In this document: one piece after another, positions 4,322-13,031 of the stretch
Numbering within the stretch: the first letter of the stretch is position 1
Layout of the letters: each line of letters opens with the position of its first letter
Source of the DNA: Candidatus Thorarchaeota archaeon
GTDB lineage: Archaea; Asgardarchaeota; Thorarchaeia; Thorarchaeales; Thorarchaeaceae
Direction of reading: 5' to 3'
DNA length: 64,000 nucleotides
Assembly (NCBI GenBank): GCA_020348985.1
Contig: CP070761.1
Span: 2,800,021 to 2,864,020, forward strand
Translations under genes and position numbers: made by a program
The notes under the pieces: model-generated
Told to the model about the DNA's origin: nothing
The model's input: the letters and a program-made list of their open reading frames with translations, nothing else
Database searches by the model: none

Positions 4322-5224
4322 ATGAAACGGGCCAAGTCTAGATTCGTCGAAGAGGAGGCCGCTAGAACGAGCTACTTGGAGCAACTAAGACGCCGTTGGG
4401 GACTTAGAGCACCTCGACAGCTTCTCAAAATGTTCAGAAGACACCGAACTTCATTCGAGACCATTCTTGCGAATATCTTCGAGGTACTGGATTCGAATGG
4501 AGGGAAGTTTGCCTTTCCCACGGTGGCTGCCGTAGCGAAGATGCGTCCGGAACTTGTGCAAGAGATTGTGAAGGAGGGGTGTGAAGTCGCAAGCCATGGA
4601 TACAATCACTTGAGATATCCCACGCTGACTCCAGAAGGCCGCCTTGAAGATCTCACTAGAAGTCTCAAGACCTTCAAACAGATGGGAATAAAGATAGACG
4701 GATTCAGGGCGCCATATGACAACTACACCGATGACATGCCAGCAATGTTAGAGAAACAGTCTCTGGTTTGGGACGGCGGTTTTGGCTACCGAAGCGAACA
4801 TCGCGAGAAGGACTACTTCTTCAATCTGGAAATAGAGGGACGCACCTCAGGTGTGACCTATATTCCTCTCAGCATCTGGAGCGATGACAAGATGATTGAT
4901 GAGATGGGAATGAATCCCGAGGCGGTTTCAAAACGACTCAAACTCGAAGTTGAAAGGACCTCGAAGAATGAGGCGATGGTAATGTTTGACCTTCATCCCA
5001 TTAGGATTGGACAGCCGGAGTTTGTACACTGTTTGGATGATGTCCTACAACATGCCAATTCACTTGGAGGATGGAGTTCTACACCTGTAGAAGCTGTTAG
5101 ATACTGGAACAAACACAGAACCTGGAAGTCTGATGCAACATTCTGTCTTCTTCTCACTGGTGACATTGATAACTGGGTTTTCTCAGACTATCTAAGAAGA
5201 GTGCTTTGGAAAAGAATGAGCTGA
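4322..5224 (+). CDS. Polysaccharide deacetylase (CE4/NodB-like)
   Basis: EVASHGYNH, GFRAPY and DLHP motifs. Start moved to ATG 4322 to avoid overlap with the upstream gene. Confidence 0.85.
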   Translation: MKRAKSRFVEEEAARTSYLEQLRRRWGLRAPRQLLKMFRRHRTSFETILANIFEVLDSNGGKFAFPTVAAVAKMRPELVQEIVKEGCEVASHGYNHLRYPTLTPEGRLEDLTRSLKTFKQMGIKIDGFRAPYDNYTDDMPAMLEKQSLVWDGGFGYRSEHREKDYFFNLEIEGRTSGVTYIPLSIWSDDKMIDEMGMNPEAVSKRLKLEVERTSKNEAMVMFDLHPIRIGQPEFVHCLDDVLQHANSLGGWSSTPVEAVRYWNKHRTWKSDATFCLLLTGDIDNWVFSDYLRRVLWKRMS

Positions 5225-5686
5225 ATGGAGACGAGAAAGATGGGGAAAATCATTGGGAGGTTTCTTAGGATACTAGCTTGGCTTGCTCCGTTCTATCAAT
5301 TCCGTGTGTCTGTACACAGGAAGTGCGGAATCAAGATTGGTAAAGGCGTTTTCATTGGACCCAATGTGATGTTTGATAGTGAACACCCAGAGTACATCGA
5401 AATCCAAGACTGGGTGGCAATTGGACCTGGTGCGATAATCATGGCACACGGAGGTGCCAGTGCACTTCACCAGAAACTGAAACTCTACGACCAGCCTCCA
5501 AAGAAGATCACAATTGAGAAAGGAGCGTGGATTGCAGCGGGGGCGATAATCCTCCCTGGCGTCACCGTGGGCCAGGGGGCCGTAGTAGCTGCAGGGGCCG
5601 TAGTCAGCAGAGATGTACAACCAATGACACTCGTTGTGGGCAACCCAGCGAGGGCTGTGCAAAAGCTAAGCCGGTCAGGCGACTAG
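5225..5686 (+). CDS. Hexapeptide-repeat (LbH) O-acyltransferase, MAT/GAT-like
   Basis: IGKGVFIGPN, IEKGAWIAAGAIILPGVTVGQGAVVAAGAVVSRDV...GNPAR; abuts the deacetylase stop. Confidence 0.9.
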   Translation: METRKMGKIIGRFLRILAWLAPFYQFRVSVHRKCGIKIGKGVFIGPNVMFDSEHPEYIEIQDWVAIGPGAIIMAHGGASALHQKLKLYDQPPKKITIEKGAWIAAGAIILPGVTVGQGAVVAAGAVVSRDVQPMTLVVGNPARAVQKLSRSGD

Positions 5687-5687
5687 G

Positions 5688-5921
5688 TCAGAGCTTGCTT
5701 GCAAGGACCTTCTTGAGATCACCGATAGTCCAGATATCAACGACCTCGTCATCGTCGAAGAAGATATTGAATCTGCTCTCGACCTCACTGATGAGTAGCA
5801 GATGCGCCATAGAATCCCACGGTTCGTAGTCCTTCCTCTTCAGGTCATCCGATATCTCGTCTTTGTCAAGCAGAAGGACAAGTGAGACAATCTCAGCAAT
5901 ACGATCGTCTATTTCGGTCAT
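5688..5921 (-). CDS. Acyl carrier protein
   Basis: 77 aa, acidic; WDSMAHL phosphopantetheine-Ser motif; E-x-x-F-x-I pattern; adjacent to fkbH and acpS. Confidence 0.92.
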   Translation of the reverse strand: MTEIDDRIAEIVSLVLLLDKDEISDDLKRKDYEPWDSMAHLLLISEVESRFNIFFDDDEVVDIWTIGDLKKVLASKL

Positions 5922-5924
5922 TAT

Positions 5925-7769
5925 CTATTCCTCTCTAACCTCGATCCACTCGGGTATCTCGACTGTCTGCTCATCGAGATTGAGAATCCAAGATGTTACA
6001 CCAGCCTCATCCGTTGTAGGCATTCCAAATCCATGACGTTCGTACAGATCCGAAGCAGGGGGGTTCTTCTTTGTGGGTATGTATTCACCAATCACGCGAG
6101 AGGCTCCAGCGGCTCGCGCATCGGCGATTATTCTCGCCAAGAAAGCGGTCTCGACCGACCGTCCTATTACTCTGCAGCTCATCAAGAACGAATCAATAAT
6201 CCTGTCACCATTATTTGCTTTCACAATGGCGACGCCTACGACACCCTCGTCTCCGAATTTGTCGGTGACAGCCATGCTGTATACGGTTGAATCCTCCGAA
6301 TCTCGGAACTGCTGTACTTGAGCGTCTGTATATCTTCTAGTCGTCAAATTGAACTGATTCGTCTTGCCTATCAATTGGACTACCCTAGGTGTGTCAAAGT
6401 CGCTGACTGGTTGTATCAGAACCTTGAGATCCAGAGTCTTCAAGAAATCATCAAGTGATCCTGCATCCCTCTCTAATTCAGCACGCTTTCGCTTCCCAAC
6501 GTACATCTCTCCGCGCGCCATGTCTTCCTTAGTGAGAGACAATACATCAAACACGTCTAGGTTCTCTAAAGTCTGGCGATAGAGTCGGGGATTCTCAGGA
6601 AGGTCAACGACCAGAACCTCAGGTAATGTCTGTCTTACCTGCTCCCTTTCCACGGGACTGTCGTCAATGAAGACAATGCTGTCTAGACCAATGTTTATCT
6701 CTTCAGCGAGTTCGATCAGATTCGTAGGTTTGTTCTGCCAGTTGATTCTTAGCGCAGCAAAATGCTCCTCACGGAGAACTTGGTAAGGATGTTCTCTGAG
6801 CACCTTAATTGCGTCCTCGAAATTGTTCTTGCTGTTGACTGCGAGAATGATTCCGCGGTTGTAGAGACTGAGTAGCACTCTTTGGAAGTCCACATATTCA
6901 ATACCAGGAGATGTGTTGCCTAGCTTGATACCTTCCATACCATCTTCGCCGATGATTCCTCCCCAGAGTGTGTTGTCAAGGTCAAGTACGATGCACTTCT
7001 TGGCCAGACCTCGAATGGCCCGGATGTAGCGCAAGTATCCCTCAGCTACGACGGGTGTGAATTCCTCGCTGAATGGAATCGACCCTCTGTACATTGTATT
7101 CCAATTTACGACTCGGTCTTTGCCAAAGGCTGCAGCCGTAGAGTCCAGATCAACAACATGAACCCTATTTGAGGTACGAAACTCTTCAGCAAGAGCTCTG
7201 TTTGCGTCCGCGAAGAAGTCTCTGATTCCCAATTGCTGTTTGGAGTCGGCAACTCCTAGAGGAGAGAATACCGGGACGATGAAGTTGTTGACAAGTACCA
7301 AGGCAGACGTGCTCTTCTCCAGCTCTTTCGCTACTGCAGAAACAGCTTTGACGATCTCCTTTTGGGAAGACTTCCTTTCCTTGTCATTCATCCTTGGAAA
7401 AGATGATAGAAAGAGTTGATCAAGCAGAGACCATGCGTCAACAGCAAGCACGACAACATCCGGGTCCAGCTGACGAAAAGGTGACATTGGATCGAGAGCT
7501 TCCTGACGAAATGTGTTGAAGCCCCCAATGAATGTCTGAGGATGCAGGCCCTCCAGTCTAATCATAACATCAAGACAGGCTGCTACTGGTTCCAGTGTTG
7601 ATGAGCCGATCACAGCCACACGTATCAACTGCGTTTCGTCTTCAGGAGGGGGAATCTCGAGGCGCTCGATCTTCTTGAAGACGCTCCAGTATCCAAGATA
7701 GGACGGGTTCTCACGAACGGTTTCGAGAAGGTCTGAGATAGCTTTATCGTTGTCACCCATATGCCTCAC
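5925..7769 (-). CDS. fkbH: FkbH-like HAD-IIIC glyceryl-transferase/phosphatase
   Basis: KCIVLDLDNTLWGGIIGEDG, FIDDSPVERE, KTNQFNLTTRRY, DKFGDEG, FLMSCRVIGR. Confidence 0.93.
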   Translation of the reverse strand: MRHMGDNDKAISDLLETVRENPSYLGYWSVFKKIERLEIPPPEDETQLIRVAVIGSSTLEPVAACLDVMIRLEGLHPQTFIGGFNTFRQEALDPMSPFRQLDPDVVVLAVDAWSLLDQLFLSSFPRMNDKERKSSQKEIVKAVSAVAKELEKSTSALVLVNNFIVPVFSPLGVADSKQQLGIRDFFADANRALAEEFRTSNRVHVVDLDSTAAAFGKDRVVNWNTMYRGSIPFSEEFTPVVAEGYLRYIRAIRGLAKKCIVLDLDNTLWGGIIGEDGMEGIKLGNTSPGIEYVDFQRVLLSLYNRGIILAVNSKNNFEDAIKVLREHPYQVLREEHFAALRINWQNKPTNLIELAEEINIGLDSIVFIDDSPVEREQVRQTLPEVLVVDLPENPRLYRQTLENLDVFDVLSLTKEDMARGEMYVGKRKRAELERDAGSLDDFLKTLDLKVLIQPVSDFDTPRVVQLIGKTNQFNLTTRRYTDAQVQQFRDSEDSTVYSMAVTDKFGDEGVVGVAIVKANNGDRIIDSFLMSCRVIGRSVETAFLARIIADARAAGASRVIGEYIPTKKNPPASDLYERHGFGMPTTDEAGVTSWILNLDEQTVEIPEWIEVREE

Positions 7770-8218
7770 TCTCTCTGCAAAAGCTCTAGGACAGCTCTGT
7801 CTATCTTCGCCTGAATATCACCCAGTTCTAGTGATCGAGCACGTGGATACGAAACCGCAACTGCAACTGCGTGGGTCGAAGAGAACGATAAACTCACTCT
7901 AATCTGATTCCCGTCCGGACCGTCTAACAGCCTCACATTTGGGACTCCTTCAGTGCTCCTGATTATCTCGATACTCGCAATTCTGCCAATGTTATTCAGT
8001 TCTAGTGCCTTTGCAACGGCTTCCTTTCCCGCAAACGTAACAGCTAGATGCGGTGCGGGATCCTGAAAGCTGAAACAGTACGAACTCTCAATTCTCGTGA
8101 AAACCCTCTGGACAAACGGGGAATCTTCGGTAAGACCTCTGAATCGCTCTATTTCAACGATGTCTGTTCCTATTTGTGCTTCTTCAAGCTCTGAGGTCTC
8201 GACCTCGTCACTACACAA
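7766..8218 (-). CDS. acpS: Holo-ACP synthase (4'-phosphopantetheinyl transferase)
   Basis: IGTDIVEIERF and FAGKEAVAKAL; GTGA overlap with fkbH. Confidence 0.9.
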   Translation of the reverse strand: MCSDEVETSELEEAQIGTDIVEIERFRGLTEDSPFVQRVFTRIESSYCFSFQDPAPHLAVTFAGKEAVAKALELNNIGRIASIEIIRSTEGVPNVRLLDGPDGNQIRVSLSFSSTHAVAVAVSYPRARSLELGDIQAKIDRAVLELLQRE

Positions 8219-8278
8219 CTTGACTCGACCGCCCTATCTTCTGGAGTCTCTTATAATGATATGGAAGAACCAATAGGA

Positions 8279-9718
8279 TCAAAGCTTAGAATCCTGCACA
8301 AGTTGAGCCGAGGACCACGGATAACGTTCTAGGATTGAGTCCAGAAGAGCCTGAACCTTCCTAACCTCTGAGGTGCCCTGATACGCCAGCAGGAGAACCA
8401 ACCCGCCCCTCGTACGCTTGAATTTCTGGTACATTGTCTTGCTCGTACTTATCGTGTCACAGACCACCATCACATCAGCCTGCGGGATGTCTAGGTCTCG
8501 CTCTCCAACTGGAGACATTACGAGGACTTCGACATCCTCGTTCTCCCGGAACTCCCTCAGAATCTCACCCTTGTCACGAGTCTGGCCTGTGATTGTGATT
8601 GTGGATAACCCAGCCCTCGTCAGTGTTTCCTCAATTTGAGCAACCATTTCGAGATACGAGGATAGCACGACCGTCTTTCGATATTGCTTGGCGATCTCAA
8701 GGACTCGAAGTGTCTTCAAAGATATCTCGGACAGACTCTTGTGTAGATGAGCTACGTTGAAATATCGTTTCAAATAGTCAGTATGGAACATCCGAAGGAA
8801 TCTATTGGCGGGCATGGCGTAGACGTACTTCCGGATGAGCAGCAGGCCCGAATAACGGCTCTTCAGTTCATCACTTATTGGTAGTCTTTCAATCATCAAA
8901 TGTATTCGTCTAACATCTCCTTCCACTAGGTCAAGATTTCCGGATTCATCCAGTTCCTGCAAAATCTCTTGGCGTGTGTTTCGGATTAGCTCGTCCAAGA
9001 CGACAAGAATCGACCGAATCTTCACATCAGTGACAAGGTTGATTGTGAGGAACGTAGGCTCAATGTGTTCTTCTACATCGGTGCCATAGAGATCTTCCAT
9101 GGAGATTACTTCAGATTCCGGTATCTGTTCCCTCAATGTGCGAAGCTCGTTTCGTATTTCCAGCTGTTCTTCCGTAAACACCGCATGGTCGTCGCGTAGT
9201 GTTCCGCTCATACCGATAATCCACTTCCCTGCAAAGAAACCCAGAATGGTTCGCCATGGAAAGACGACCGTGGTTCTGCCTCCAGTTCTTTTGATTATAG
9301 TATCAACTTCGTTGATTAGTATCATATCGTAAGCTTCCAGAAGTGAGGGTTCTTTCTCCACCATCCTAGCCAATATCTGAGGAGTTGCTACAACAACCCT
9401 CTTCTCCCGTAATACAATGGGTCGGAGGGGAGACCTTACTCTGGATGATAGCTCTCCAAGGTCATCCTCGAGACCACCATACTCGCTCCTCAGATAGTCC
9501 ATGGTTTCTGCGAGAGATGATGACGAGTGAACAACTATGATGATTCTCGTCTCAGGAAACCGCTCAGCAACAATCTGATGAGTGATGAATCGTTTCCCCA
9601 GTCCGCAATCTAGCTCAAGCAATAGATTAGTGCCAGCCATCGAACTAATCCTGTCAAGGATGTAATTCTGGTATCCCCTTGGGGTGTACTTTGTCTGGGC
9701 ACTTGGCATTGCATTCAC
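8279..9718 (-). CDS. SF2 helicase-like protein (Hef/ERCC4-helicase-like) with degenerate motifs
   Basis: PRGYQ Q-motif, LDCGLGKR, VVATPQ, INEVD, GMSGT, GERDLDIP, QKFKRTRG. Confidence 0.8.
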   Translation of the reverse strand: MNAMPSAQTKYTPRGYQNYILDRISSMAGTNLLLELDCGLGKRFITHQIVAERFPETRIIIVVHSSSSLAETMDYLRSEYGGLEDDLGELSSRVRSPLRPIVLREKRVVVATPQILARMVEKEPSLLEAYDMILINEVDTIIKRTGGRTTVVFPWRTILGFFAGKWIIGMSGTLRDDHAVFTEEQLEIRNELRTLREQIPESEVISMEDLYGTDVEEHIEPTFLTINLVTDVKIRSILVVLDELIRNTRQEILQELDESGNLDLVEGDVRRIHLMIERLPISDELKSRYSGLLLIRKYVYAMPANRFLRMFHTDYLKRYFNVAHLHKSLSEISLKTLRVLEIAKQYRKTVVLSSYLEMVAQIEETLTRAGLSTITITGQTRDKGEILREFRENEDVEVLVMSPVGERDLDIPQADVMVVCDTISTSKTMYQKFKRTRGGLVLLLAYQGTSEVRKVQALLDSILERYPWSSAQLVQDSKL

Positions 9719-9809
9719 TTGAGATTCTTGGACTCAACCAACCGTGCACTTCATTCGGTCTTAAGAACCTAGAGTATAGGTGGTTCCATAAGGAATCTGA
9801 CAATCACTT

Positions 9810-10682
9810 CTAGTCGTCCTCATTGAGGGCGTCTACATGGTCCTCGACATTTCTGATTTGCACTGGGTCCGCCATTCCATGGAAGGTGACCTCGGAAGTC
9901 GATTCGACGTCACCCCTTCTCAATGGAGTCGCCCTTCCGCTTACCCATATAGTGCCAGCCTGAATCTTGCGATTCTTTGGAACAACCGAGTTGGCCCCAA
10001 TGACCGCGTTGTCTCCAATCTCTGCACCAGGCATGATAATCGCGTAACCCCCAACAGTGACATTGTCACCAATCTTGACCTTCTTGAGGTACAGCGAATT
10101 GCCTTCAAAGACATGAGCAGATATAATCGCGCCGTAGCCTGTATAGCAATTCCTTCCGATTTCGACTCGCTCTGGTGTGAACACGAGACTATTGCCCAGT
10201 ACTGTGTCCTTTCCAATCTTGGCCCCAAATTGAACCTGCCTTACCCTACCATCGATATACGGTGCAAAGAGCCAGATGAAGTGTCTTAATAGAGCATAGT
10301 AGGTTTCGCGGAACTCGTAGATCAACCATTCATCAGAGTCCCGAGTATAGTAGCCTTCATCGACCATGGGTATCGCCAAACGGGACAACTTGAACATTGC
10401 CACCAGGACAGTGAGAAACACAGTGTAGCAGACCAAGCCGATAGGTACGACTAGAATGAGGAACCAGAACTTCTCGTACACAAACTGCGGAAAAGCACCT
10501 GCAAATTGGATTTCGACGAAGGCCTGAATGTCTTGGAATGGCCATCCGAAACCATTAATCACGGGGTCGAGATTCTGAAGAGCATAGAAGAACATGAAGA
10601 CCGGAATGATTGATGCTATCGCCATACTGATTAGAATCGATAGGGCCATGTAGATTCCGTATACTCTGGTCTTGACTTTCAG
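9810..10682 (-). CDS. Membrane LbH (hexapeptide) acyltransferase-like protein, paralog 1
   Basis: N-terminal TM helices, then FGAKIGK...KKVKIGDNVTVGGYAIIMPGAEIGDNAVIGANS. Probable CTG start at 10682 after AGGAGG (ATG at 10649 is the alternative). Confidence 0.85.
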   Translation of the reverse strand: MKVKTRVYGIYMALSILISMAIASIIPVFMFFYALQNLDPVINGFGWPFQDIQAFVEIQFAGAFPQFVYEKFWFLILVVPIGLVCYTVFLTVLVAMFKLSRLAIPMVDEGYYTRDSDEWLIYEFRETYYALLRHFIWLFAPYIDGRVRQVQFGAKIGKDTVLGNSLVFTPERVEIGRNCYTGYGAIISAHVFEGNSLYLKKVKIGDNVTVGGYAIIMPGAEIGDNAVIGANSVVPKNRKIQAGTIWVSGRATPLRRGDVESTSEVTFHGMADPVQIRNVEDHVDALNEDD

Positions 10683-10782
10683 TTTCCGGCCTCCTATGCC
10701 AATGATTTTCCGTCACCGGAATCAGTCGGAATAAGAACCTTCCCGTGCAGTGCTTCCGACGTTTTCTGAAGAATTCTTTGCT

Positions 10783-11637
10783 TTACGCTTCAGATGGTTC
10801 GGACGGACCATCTTCATCTTCAACTGATTTGGCCGGATTGGTAATCGCCTGAATGCTAACCGGGTCCATGTCTTTCCGGGGTATCGCGTTCCCGTTGATC
10901 CAAATGGAGTTGGGAGGAATAATGCGGTCCTTGCCAACCACTGTGTTGGCGGCAACAATTGAGTTGTCGCCTATTTCAGTCCCCGCGAAAACCATAGCGT
11001 GACCTCCCACGGTCACATTGTTGCCAATCTTCACGGTCTTGATATACAACCTGTCTCCATCATACATGTGCGGACATAGAAGTGAGCCATACCCAACGAT
11101 GCAATTCTTACCGATTTCCAACCTGTCAGGAGTCAAGACGTGCCCTCCGCCAATGATCGTTCCTCTTCCAATCTTGGCTCCGAAGTAGATGTGTAGAAGT
11201 CGTGCATTCAGGAAGGCCGAAAAGAACCAGGTGAAGTGTGAGAAGATGGTATAGTACGATTGGTACATCTCGTAGAAGAGCCATTCACCATTTGCTTTGT
11301 AATAGACTCCTTCGTCAAGATGGGGAATCGCCCGCCTGGAAAGGACAAACATGGCGCACAACACTGCAAGAAACATTCCATAGCAGAACAGACCGAGGGG
11401 TACAATCAAGACAAAGAACCAGAACCTCTCAAGTGCAATCGCAGGAAGAACGCCTGCGAAAGCACCAGCAAAGAAACTCTGGATATTTGCGAATGGCCAA
11501 CCGAAGCCTGTTAGAACTGAGTCTAGATTCTCAAATGCTGCCAGGAATACGAAAACCGCTGGCATCGCTGCGATGAAGATACTGAGGAGCATTGACAATG
11601 CCATGTAAAGGGCATATGCAATGTACTTAGGCTTCAG
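10783..11637 (-). CDS. Membrane LbH (hexapeptide) acyltransferase-like protein, paralog 2
   Basis: Clear paralog of 9810-10682 (GFGWPF, E[RK]FWF, FGAKIG, VKIG.NVTVGG). Probable CTG start at 11637 (ATG at 11604 is the alternative). Confidence 0.85.
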   Translation of the reverse strand: MKPKYIAYALYMALSMLLSIFIAAMPAVFVFLAAFENLDSVLTGFGWPFANIQSFFAGAFAGVLPAIALERFWFFVLIVPLGLFCYGMFLAVLCAMFVLSRRAIPHLDEGVYYKANGEWLFYEMYQSYYTIFSHFTWFFSAFLNARLLHIYFGAKIGRGTIIGGGHVLTPDRLEIGKNCIVGYGSLLCPHMYDGDRLYIKTVKIGNNVTVGGHAMVFAGTEIGDNSIVAANTVVGKDRIIPPNSIWINGNAIPRKDMDPVSIQAITNPAKSVEDEDGPSEPSEA

Positions 11638-11783: not shown

Positions 11784-13031
11784 TTGGTGAAAGATATGAC
11801 CTACGATCTCGCGATTGCCGGAACTGGCCCAGCAGGTTTGATGACCGCTGACCGAGCTTCAGAGAAGGGACTAAGGACAATCGTTCTCGAGAAACGGAAC
11901 CACGTTACTGATTCCCTAATGGGCGAGCTAGTTACCGACAACGCTCTAAGACTGCTTCGCGTCAAACCTGATTCTGAATTTATCGGCAACAAGTATAGTG
12001 AGATCGTGGGAGAGAGCCTAGACACTGGCGCAAACGTAGTAGTCGGTAAGGAGTTGCTAGGTAATGCATACCTTTTCGATGAAGACAAGTGTCAGGAGCT
12101 CATGAGAGACCGTGCCGAGGCAAATGGAGCAGAGTTCAAGTATGGAGCACGTGTCAGGTCGGTGATCAAAGAGAATGGCTCAGTTGTAGGGATGAAGTAC
12201 AAAACCGACGATGAAGTTAGGGCCAAGCTCACTGTCGGTGCTGACGGTGCGTTTAGCAGGGTCTCAGAGACCGCAGGTTTTAGGTCATTTGTCAAGAAAT
12301 GGCTGCTGAGTTATGGATATCGATGGAAGCTGGAAAACTGCAAGGGCGTTGATCCTAACGTGGCTTACTTTTACGTTGGCAAAGATGTCGGATTGGGCTA
12401 CCTATGGTTGTACCCGAGGAGTGAGTCCGAGGTCAATCTTGGAATAGGCCGTGTTCCATCTTCAAAGACAAATTGGGATGCGCTTCCGCCCATGCAGGAA
12501 GTCTTGAGGAAATACAAGAACAGCCATTCTGAGACAAAGGATGCGACGATTGCTTCGGTAAATGGTGGCGTCGTACCTTGCGCGGGAATAATCCCCCGTT
12601 TTACTGATGCTGGCGTGGCTCTTTGCGGAAACAGTGCAGGCCAGGTCTCGTCGATCGTCGGCGGTGGCGTGACAACTTGCTTTCACGCAGGCACTCTTCT
12701 GGCCAAGCATGCCGCCAGAGCTATCGAAGAAGATGATGTTTCAAAGAAGAGCATTGAGAAGTATGAGAAGGAGTACAGAAAGACCAAGCTCGCCTACAAC
12801 ATAACCCAGACAGGCAAGGGGATGTGGGCAGTGTCCAAGTTTGCAATGTTCAACGATCCAATTGATGCAGCCGAGGTAGTGCTAGAGTCACTTGATGCAA
12901 GGACACTGAATGCTGCGATTCAGGGAAACATGAAAGTGAGTGACATCATGACTCTGCTGACCGACTTCTTGCCCATGGTGATGACAATAGGAAAGGGTTA
13001 CCTTCGGAGCATAGCAGTGAGTGGGCTCTGA
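11784..13031 (+). CDS. Geranylgeranyl reductase-family FAD oxidoreductase
   Basis: AGTGPAG, VGADG, GYLWLYP, NLGIG, GNSAGQV...GGG. Confidence 0.85.
   Translation: MVKDMTYDLAIAGTGPAGLMTADRASEKGLRTIVLEKRNHVTDSLMGELVTDNALRLLRVKPDSEFIGNKYSEIVGESLDTGANVVVGKELLGNAYLFDEDKCQELMRDRAEANGAEFKYGARVRSVIKENGSVVGMKYKTDDEVRAKLTVGADGAFSRVSETAGFRSFVKKWLLSYGYRWKLENCKGVDPNVAYFYVGKDVGLGYLWLYPRSESEVNLGIGRVPSSKTNWDALPPMQEVLRKYKNSHSETKDATIASVNGGVVPCAGIIPRFTDAGVALCGNSAGQVSSIVGGGVTTCFHAGTLLAKHAARAIEEDDVSKKSIEKYEKEYRKTKLAYNITQTGKGMWAVSKFAMFNDPIDAAEVVLESLDARTLNAAIQGNMKVSDIMTLLTDFLPMVMTIGKGYLRSIAVSGL

Follow-up and report, generated by a model that had tools for sequence, protein, structure and literature searches.

In a 64,000-nucleotide stretch of the genome of a Candidatus Thorarchaeota archaeon (assembly GCA_020348985.1, contig CP070761.1, positions 2,800,021 to 2,864,020; hereafter, the window), we analyzed five genes that encode an AcpS-type 4'-phosphopantetheinyl transferase (PPTase), a long-form FkbH-family loader, an acyl carrier protein (ACP), a CE4-fold deacetylase, and a 153-amino-acid left-handed beta-helix (LbH) acyltransferase, LbH153. 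These five genes form one insertion/deletion unit, a self-contained cassette. We propose, with a probability of roughly one in two, that the cassette replaces the acetyl group on an amino sugar with glycerate, with glyceryl-ACP as the donor, the CE4 enzyme as the deacetylase, and LbH153 as the N-acylating enzyme. An initial annotation, made from the DNA letters alone, had described an ACP-dependent glyceryl-transfer module here and had also assigned to it two membrane-bound LbH paralogs (TM-LbH), a part of the proposal that was not borne out. The host genome is a single contig of 3.16 Mb, with a completeness estimate of 86%.

To follow the distribution of the cassette, we used FkbH, LbH153, the deacetylase, and TM-LbH as queries against 60 relatives, including 36 further members of the family, and retrieved approximately 20 kb around the locus from 27 genomes, onto which the window proteins were mapped. 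High-scoring orthologs of FkbH, LbH153, and the deacetylase occurred in an identical set of 16 of the 36 family genomes, and the intact cassette was missing from the other 20, one of which keeps decayed remnants. In every locus of sufficient length, the order of the five genes was unchanged, with a PUR-like gene on one side and a helicase gene on the other. In 10 of the 12 FkbH-negative loci retrieved, the PUR-like gene directly abutted the helicase gene, and the five genes were gone. An order-level relative without FkbH (locus L060) retained only the helicase, the TM-LbH gene, and a gene of the geranylgeranyl-reductase (GGR) family. The remnants, in genome G022 (L057, G022:C7, 12594–13110), occupy the position of the cassette in its relatives, with the helicase and PUR-like genes on either side, and consist of an AcpS fragment (residues 16–59) and a deacetylase fragment (residues 59–191, counted in the long frame, and interrupted by two TAG stops); this locus is a decaying cassette. 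When the sample was widened to 85 genomes of the family, an FkbH match was present in 40, in at least 35 of them of the cassette type; among the 40, one genome has only a type-2 paralog (G369) and another only a 40% partial match (G355). The 20 cassette-carrying sequencing runs listed were all DNA metagenomes from sediment, estuary, or marine sources, and no RNA run carrying the cassette was among them.

The cassette was also found in other Asgard lineages. Fifteen loci were examined, from a Hodarchaeota metagenome-assembled genome (MAG), Promethearchaeota DZ3S.51, and, for the remaining 13 loci, two other families (hereafter, Hod-type loci). All 15 contained the five genes, with an FkbH identity of approximately 46%, in at least three gene orders that differed from the thorarchaeotal (Thor) order. 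In most of them, the deacetylase gene opens the acpS–fkbH–acp operon, and LbH153 is encoded on the opposite strand, on either side. Because the set was kept together through rearrangement, which is much stronger evidence than an order conserved among close relatives, the five genes can be regarded as a functional unit. The initial annotation would have been undermined if the deacetylase and LbH genes had not accompanied fkbH–acp in relatives; the deacetylase and the small LbH gene were present in 16 of the 16 family genomes with FkbH, intact in 0 of the 20 without it, and present in all 15 loci of the other lineages. In a FastTree phylogeny of 87 sequences, for which the 80 best foreign hits were sampled and a paralog served as the root, the cassette-type FkbH proteins of the Thor and Hod types formed one clade with a support of 0.89. 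Cassette-type FkbH was detected in approximately 17 genomes of three other Asgard families and in none of the 135 genomes of the largest family searched. The surroundings of the Hod-type cassettes are unrelated housekeeping genes (e.g., purH and gyrB).

A sixth gene often accompanies the Hod-type cassettes. It encodes a 138-amino-acid protein of the VOC/glyoxalase fold (L106, 6625–7041; L064, 11093–11506; and L143–L154), lies beside LbH153 in 11 of the 15 loci, and is missing from the Thor cassette. One possible role of the protein is modification of the acyl-ACP, such as epimerization. Six of the 31 family f5 genomes, and several from families f1, f14, f21, and f23, contained another, more distant FkbH-like system with approximately 31% identity (e.g., L037, G007:C32, 9330–15859; and L036, G040:C38, 9335–13518). 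Its neighbors are a protein of 316–319 amino acids that belongs to no known family and an alpha/beta hydrolase, to which L037 adds an Sfp-type PPTase and a 325-amino-acid LbH protein.

Within the window, the five genes are packed tightly between 4.3 and 8.2 kb. The stop codon of AcpS lies 5 nucleotides ahead of the ATG of FkbH, or the two genes overlap by 4 nucleotides if FkbH starts at the GTG at 7769, and the stop codon of FkbH is followed after 3 nucleotides by the ATG of ACP. The ACP and LbH153 genes are convergent, with stop codons 1 nucleotide apart; the deacetylase and LbH153 genes abut each other, and GAGG-like sequences precede the ATGs. Thus, the packed minus-strand acpS–fkbH–acp series and its convergence on the deacetylase–LbH pair are arranged as first described. 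All of the genes listed initially were correct, except that the list left out the helicase gene.

That omission bears on the TM-LbH paralogs. Both are encoded on the same strand as acpS, as stated in the initial annotation, but because a 479-amino-acid SF2 helicase gene intervenes, they are not simply the upstream part of one unit. Their distribution also differs from that of the cassette: TM-LbH was found in 32 of the 36 family genomes, including all cassette-negative genera, and was missing from three cassette-positive genomes (G007, G016, and G017). The gene is tandemly duplicated in the window and in G028. The helicase, TM-LbH, and GGR genes form a trio that is conserved with or without the cassette, down to the order-level relative, and the TM-LbH gene was absent from all 15 Hod-type cassette loci. 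The helicase, the TM-LbH pair, and the GGR gene are therefore conserved neighbors and not cassette parts, and this phyletic pattern rules out TM-LbH as a member of the module. We also considered a scenario in which the paralogs share the acyl-ACP of the cassette, for the modification of ether lipids or for a Pls-like polymerization of glycerate. The genes lie only 1.6 kb from acpS, and their domains weakly match both the Pls/PosA terminal domain (TIGR02353) and a heptaprenylglyceryl-phosphate O-acetyltransferase model. However, these matches fall far below the family cut-offs (58.8 and 55.9 against 423 for TIGR02353, covering positions 111–208 of 695, and 59.6 against 300), and the pattern just described contradicts a link to the acyl-ACP, which makes the scenario very improbable. 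The glycerate polymer suggested initially thus comes down to a generic LbH match and was rejected. A lipid reading of the cassette drawn from the adjacent GGR gene was likewise set aside, since that gene, TM-LbH, and the helicase stay together regardless of the cassette, and the Hod-type cassettes occur in unrelated contexts. A lipid role of TM-LbH itself is only a lead.

Among the cassette proteins, the loader FkbH matched TIGR01686 at E = 7.4e-94, with 314.5 bits against a cut-off of 146.65 and over positions 2–320 of the 323 in the profile, and TIGR01681 at E = 1.4e-22; its closest orthologs were from Candidatus Thorarchaeota. An N-terminal domain is followed by a HAD-IIIC phosphatase domain and then by a third domain, of the GNAT fold, with a conserved cysteine. 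Among its relatives, a structure has been solved only for BF1531 of Bacteroides fragilis (PDB 3SLR, E = 1.4e-45), which spans the N-terminal and phosphatase parts. When the AlphaFold2 model (pLDDT 86.5) was searched with Foldseek, the first two domains resembled 3SLR (TMt 0.86), and the cysteine-bearing C-terminal domain showed a GNAT fold, with TMt values of 0.70–0.74 to several GNAT proteins. In an alignment of 18 sequences with 36–45% identity, residues D263, D265, T267, S313, K347, D369–D370, and C532 (in an S-C-R motif) were invariant or nearly so; the HAD catalytic motifs (DxDxT, Ser/Thr, Lys, and DD) and the conserved cysteine are intact. In OzmB, the conserved cysteine holds the acyl group. 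The long-form FkbH family is very large: at E ≤ 1e-3, it comprises 15,118 cluster representatives, and lengths of 560–760 amino acids with identities of 36–46% are common among them. Characterized FkbH-type enzymes convert 1,3-bisphosphoglycerate to glyceryl-ACP (PMC7489565). The FkbH literature that we found consisted of papers on polyketide synthases (PKSs) or natural products, with none on glycans or archaea.

The long form might instead load another phosphorylated hydroxy-acid, so that the transferred group would not be glyceroyl. Consistent with this, the searchable literature yielded no characterized enzyme with the extra N-terminal domain, a domain that has no known function, and acyl tailoring is suggested by the VOC/glyoxalase-fold gene of the Hod-type loci and by MaoC, short-chain dehydrogenase/reductase (SDR), and methyltransferase genes at bacterial loci. 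Nevertheless, the FkbH domain scores far above its curated cut-off with its HAD residues and cysteine in place, and because the Thor cassette contains no tailoring gene, the direct product of FkbH would be what is transferred. We consider a group other than glyceroyl improbable.

ACP and AcpS are rare in archaea. The cassette AcpS matched PF01648 (E = 2.2e-13, 50.6 bits against a cut-off of 25) and TIGR00556 (54.6 bits against 45.35) and was the sole PPTase match in the genome. The ACP carries the WDSMAH motif, in which W35 and D36 are invariant; its best PDB match is 2LML, a putative ACP. A whole-genome scan with PF00550 was uninformative, giving no matches and missing even the cassette ACP, so a profile of the ACP family was used instead, and it detected only one copy in the genome, that of the cassette (E = 5.8e-36). 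No ketosynthase of the PKS or fatty acid synthase (FAS) type was found in the genome, where the ketosynthase model produced no more than weak, partial matches to frames the size of thiolases; archaeal control genomes gave the same picture. MBOAT (PF03062) likewise gave 0 matches in the genome, and the eight AMP-binding matches were stand-alone frames of 519–693 amino acids, which are not the size of nonribosomal peptide synthetases, to which the tandem TM/LbH repeats of Pls-type enzymes are fused. With a single ACP and PPTase, no PKS/FAS ketosynthase, no MBOAT, and only stand-alone AMP-binding enzymes, no user of the acyl-ACP is apparent outside the proteins of the cassette. The AcpS–FkbH–ACP module described initially is thus supported, as an intact carrier-loading module that lacks a PKS or FAS partner.

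The candidate user of the acyl-ACP is LbH153. Its nearest solved relatives are O-acetyltransferases of the Maa/LacA type (galactoside and maltose; E approximately 3e-15), and the sugar N-acetyltransferases 7S43, QdtC, and WlbB score almost as high. The best NCBIfam match was the WcaF family (NF007797, 73 against a cut-off of 192), the YvoF-type family NF058585 reached 68.3 against 300, and the LpxA and LpxD models were absent among the 25 best of 46 NCBIfam matches; among the matches listed, these two models hit only the TM-LbH proteins, weakly (approximately 24–33 bits against cut-offs of 207–242.5). His75 is invariant and occupies the site of the catalytic histidine of the family. When a trimer of LbH153 was modeled with one ACP, the median score was 0.75 and that of the best of three controls 0.00, in a setting (our own alignments, three copies) that lies outside the calibration of the tool; 58 of 80 solved complexes and two of 110 mismatched pairs reach this mark. 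The three runs shared at least 94% of their contacts, with an ACP pLDDT of at least 87 (87–88 within the complex model). The modeled contacts join ACP residues 36–44 (Ser37 and helix II) and 57–61 to LbH153 residues 122–147, at the interface of two subunits, which is where the coenzyme A (CoA) nucleotide sits and the pantetheine arm enters in Maa/LacA-type enzymes. Solved LpxA–ACP and LpxD–ACP complexes exist, and these LbH–ACP structures might bias the model. The model, in which the Ser37 helix docks on the trimer, supports but does not prove ACP binding by LbH153. The earlier idea that LbH enzymes accept acyl-ACP thus gained support for the small transferase and lost it for the membrane paralogs.

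The deacetylase, of approximately 285–300 amino acids, matched PF01522 with 55.9 bits against a cut-off of 23.1. No signal peptide or membrane segment was found in it, and we propose that it is cytoplasmic. Its subfamily appears to be restricted to Asgard archaea among the homologs found, which comprised 147 hits, the named ones all being Thor, Hodarchaeales, or Kariarchaeaceae sequences. Residues H92, H96, R129-P131-Y132, D188–D189, D223, H225, D281, and D283 are invariant. All of the CE4 motifs are thus conserved, but they occur in the order 2-3-4-5-1 (HxxxH, RxPY, WSDD, and DLH, followed by motif 1), with the motif 1 strand (LLLTGDIDNW, containing D281 and D283) located C-terminally rather than N-terminally. 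In the DUF3473-type CE4 proteins that neighbor FkbH in a thaumarchaeote and a Phycisphaerae MAG, the corresponding GIDFEDWY and SFDIEDWF stand at the N-terminus. The AlphaFold2 model (pLDDT 90.4), whose last strand spans residues 274–279, folds like PuuE and other CE4 enzymes, and acetylxylan esterases were among the fold hits. The order of the motifs and of the predicted strands suggests that the protein is a circular permutation of an active CE4 enzyme.

The wider distribution of FkbH offers a glycan context. Eighty foreign FkbH loci, which span numerous phyla of bacteria and archaea, were scanned with profiles made from the Thor proteins. An ACP gene directly follows FkbH in approximately 65 of them. 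AcpS adjoins FkbH in the Candidate Phyla Radiation (CPR), Nanoarchaeota, Micrarchaeota, Methanospirillaceae, Dehalococcoidia, an Acidiferrobacteraceae member, and an Acidobacteriota MAG. Other genes at these loci were called with a simple and noisy gene caller, so that the neighbor tallies are rough; downstream, they included glycosyltransferases of families GT1, GT2, and GT4, sulfotransferases, epimerases, methyltransferases, MaoC, and SDR genes, as well as three MBOATs, three LbH genes, and two PIG-L de-N-acetylases. For example, a Marine Group I thaumarchaeote encodes FkbH beside an LbH153-like gene (E = 4e-31 to the profile), a CE4 enzyme, two sugar nucleotidyltransferases, and a GT2 protein; the Phycisphaerae MAG contains FkbH, ACP, and a CE4 deacetylase amid GT2 and GT4 genes; and in a Methanospirillaceae MAG, FkbH, ACP, SDR, AcpS, and methyltransferase genes are followed by a PglD-like LbH gene. 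PglD-type enzymes are amino-sugar N-acetyltransferases. As an observation in its own right, the long-form FkbH with an adjacent ACP is widespread, with examples from Acidobacteriota, Planctomycetota, Nitrospirota, Gemmatimonadota, Clostridia, CPR, Thaumarchaeota, DPANN, and methanogens (L062–L141), a pairing of which we found no description in the searchable literature.

In the LpxC/LpxD and NodB/NodA pathways, a de-N-acetylase frees the amine of a sugar and an acyl-ACP-dependent transferase re-acylates it. By analogy, the glycerate-for-acetyl exchange that we propose would proceed as follows. AcpS would attach the phosphopantetheine arm to Ser37 of the ACP. FkbH would take 1,3-bisphosphoglycerate, a glycolytic intermediate, with Cys532 holding the acyl group while the HAD domain strips the 3-phosphate, and would pass the glyceryl group to holo-ACP. 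The amino sugar that the cytoplasmic CE4 enzyme would de-N-acetylate is probably carried by a glycan precursor linked to a nucleotide or a lipid, and LbH153 would move the glyceryl group from the ACP to the freed amine, yielding an N-glyceroyl sugar. Several elements of this scheme are inferred: the acyl group (glycerate), the kind of target (glycan or lipid), what FkbH uses as its substrate, what the deacetylase does and at which stage, acylation on N rather than O, and which molecule accepts the group.

The choice of an N-acyl product deserves particular attention, because LbH153 could also form an O-ester on a hydroxyl group of a glycan or lipid head group, using the same glyceryl-ACP, with the CE4 enzyme acting as an O-deacetylase or in a separate trimming step. 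The galactoside and maltose O-acetyltransferases among its best solved matches, its best NCBIfam match to the WcaF family, and the acetylxylan esterases that CE4 includes all fit such a product. On the other hand, the sugar N-acetyltransferases score nearly as well, a deacetylase that is strictly paired with an acyltransferase accords with the unmasking of an amine as in the Lpx and Nod pathways, and PIG-L de-N-acetylases and a PglD-like LbH protein accompany FkbH–ACP elsewhere. We consider an O-ester unlikely but a live alternative, the most plausible of the departures from glycerate N-acylation considered here.

Several observations weigh against glycerate N-acylation, in addition to the calibration and possible bias of the complex model. 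Because the long form of FkbH is uncharacterized in the searchable literature, glycerate was assigned by extrapolating from short enzymes of the PKS type. The ACP scored below the cut-off of PF00550 (18.8 against 20.8 bits), and its matches to NCBIfam ACP subfamilies were weak. In G017 (L029, G017:C218, 8831–9052), the ACP motif reads WDAMAH, with the phosphopantetheine-bearing serine replaced by alanine in an otherwise intact cassette. The solved relatives of LbH153 mostly use acetyl-CoA as O-acetyltransferases, and LbH153 reached no curated family cut-off in NCBIfam. Finally, the Thor cassette is located amid unrelated genes, with no glycosyltransferase nearby.

Compared with known systems, the cassette combines familiar kinds of part, an FkbH/ACP loader and what would be an ACP-fed LbH acyl transfer after de-N-acetylation; we found no paper describing the five-gene set. 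In the LpxC/LpxD and NodB/NodA/NodF systems, a cytoplasmic de-N-acetylase likewise precedes an acyl-ACP transferase, and LpxD is an LbH protein and NodB a CE4 enzyme, whereas LbH153 does not exceed the LpxA/LpxD threshold, and its predicted substrate is a C3 hydroxy-acid from FkbH rather than a fatty acid from FAS. The Dlt pathway (DltA, DltC, DltB, and DltD) also uses a small dedicated carrier to deliver a non-fatty acyl group for envelope decoration. However, no MBOAT was found in the Thor genome, the loader is FkbH instead of an adenylating ligase, and transfer is predicted to be cytoplasmic, via a soluble LbH enzyme. The FkbH/OzmB glyceryl-ACP synthases with stand-alone ACPs, known from methoxymalonyl-ACP and tetronate formation (PMC7489565), share with the Thor system the FkbH domain, the HAD motifs, the cysteine, and an adjacent dedicated ACP. 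The Thor FkbH differs in its extra N-terminal domain of approximately 250 amino acids, which is of the BF1531 type, and the cassette lacks the acyl-ACP dehydrogenases, O-methyltransferase, FabH-like enzyme, and PKS of the methoxymalonyl-ACP and tetronate operons; its predicted acyl-ACP user is an LbH transferase, and the archaeal host must bring its own AcpS.

Glycerate-derived N-acyl groups on amino sugars are known from bacterial nonulosonic acids. Tannerella forsythia carries Pse5Am7Gra, an N-glyceroyl sugar, the genetic basis of which was termed a major challenge, with the genes unassigned in 2017 (PMC5378307). For the di-O-methylglyceroyl-Pse of Campylobacter jejuni (Cj1295/cj1302 locus), it has been proposed that the N-acetyl group is taken off before the sugar is re-acylated (PMC3068675), and an fkbH-domain gene, cj1302, is located in that locus (PMC7099621). 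The proposed C. jejuni de-acetylase is aminopeptidase-like rather than a CE4 enzyme, these papers give neither cj1302 nor an ACP a role, and no feature of the Thor cassette suggests a nonulosonic acid.

The coordinates of the features discussed are given in Table 1. The 307-amino-acid protein that flanks the cassette site was kept in all family genomes, with or without the cassette.

Table 1. Genes of the cassette and its neighbors, in positions of the window.
Feature	Positions	Strand	Matches
CE4-fold deacetylase	4322–5224	+	PF01522 (E = 5.5e-15)
LbH153, left-handed beta-helix acyltransferase, 153 amino acids	5225–5686	+	PF00132 (E = 6.3e-14)
ACP, 77 amino acids, Ser37 in WDSMAH	5688–5921	-	PF00550 (18.8 bits), NCBIfam ACP subfamilies
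Long-form FkbH-family loader, 611 amino acids from the ATG at 7760	5925–7760 (7769 if GTG start)	-	TIGR01686, TIGR01681
AcpS-type 4'-phosphopantetheinyl transferase	7766–8218	-	PF01648, TIGR00556
SF2 helicase, 479 amino acids	8279–9718	-	
TM-LbH paralogs (two, membrane)	9810–10649 and 10783–11604	-	
Geranylgeranyl-reductase-family (GGR) gene	11784–13031	divergent from TM-LbH genes	
Protein flanking the cassette site, 307 amino acids	3370–4293		0 Pfam/NCBIfam matches

Because ACP and AcpS serve only one small cassette in this genome, their purpose here can be pinned down. If the proposed exchange is correct, it would constitute a route by which a C3 acid derived from glycolysis is placed on sugars without a PKS, and Asgard glycans or lipids would show hexosamine + 88.016 Da instead of + 42.011 Da. 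We tentatively suggest, as a broader and less secure extension, that the Thor- and Hod-type Asgard lineages make N-glyceroyl amino sugars for their surface glycans via a dedicated ACP, which would add to the very small number of ACP functions in archaea, and that the widespread bacterial FkbH–ACP pairs are the genetic basis of glyceroyl-type sugar decorations such as Pse5Am7Gra and di-O-methylglyceroyl-Pse. This would bear on the glycobiology of bacterial pathogens, in which the genes for N-glyceroyl and di-O-methylglyceroyl sugars are unassigned (PMC5378307 and PMC3068675), and it offers a testable function for the very large, uncharacterized family of long-form FkbH proteins.

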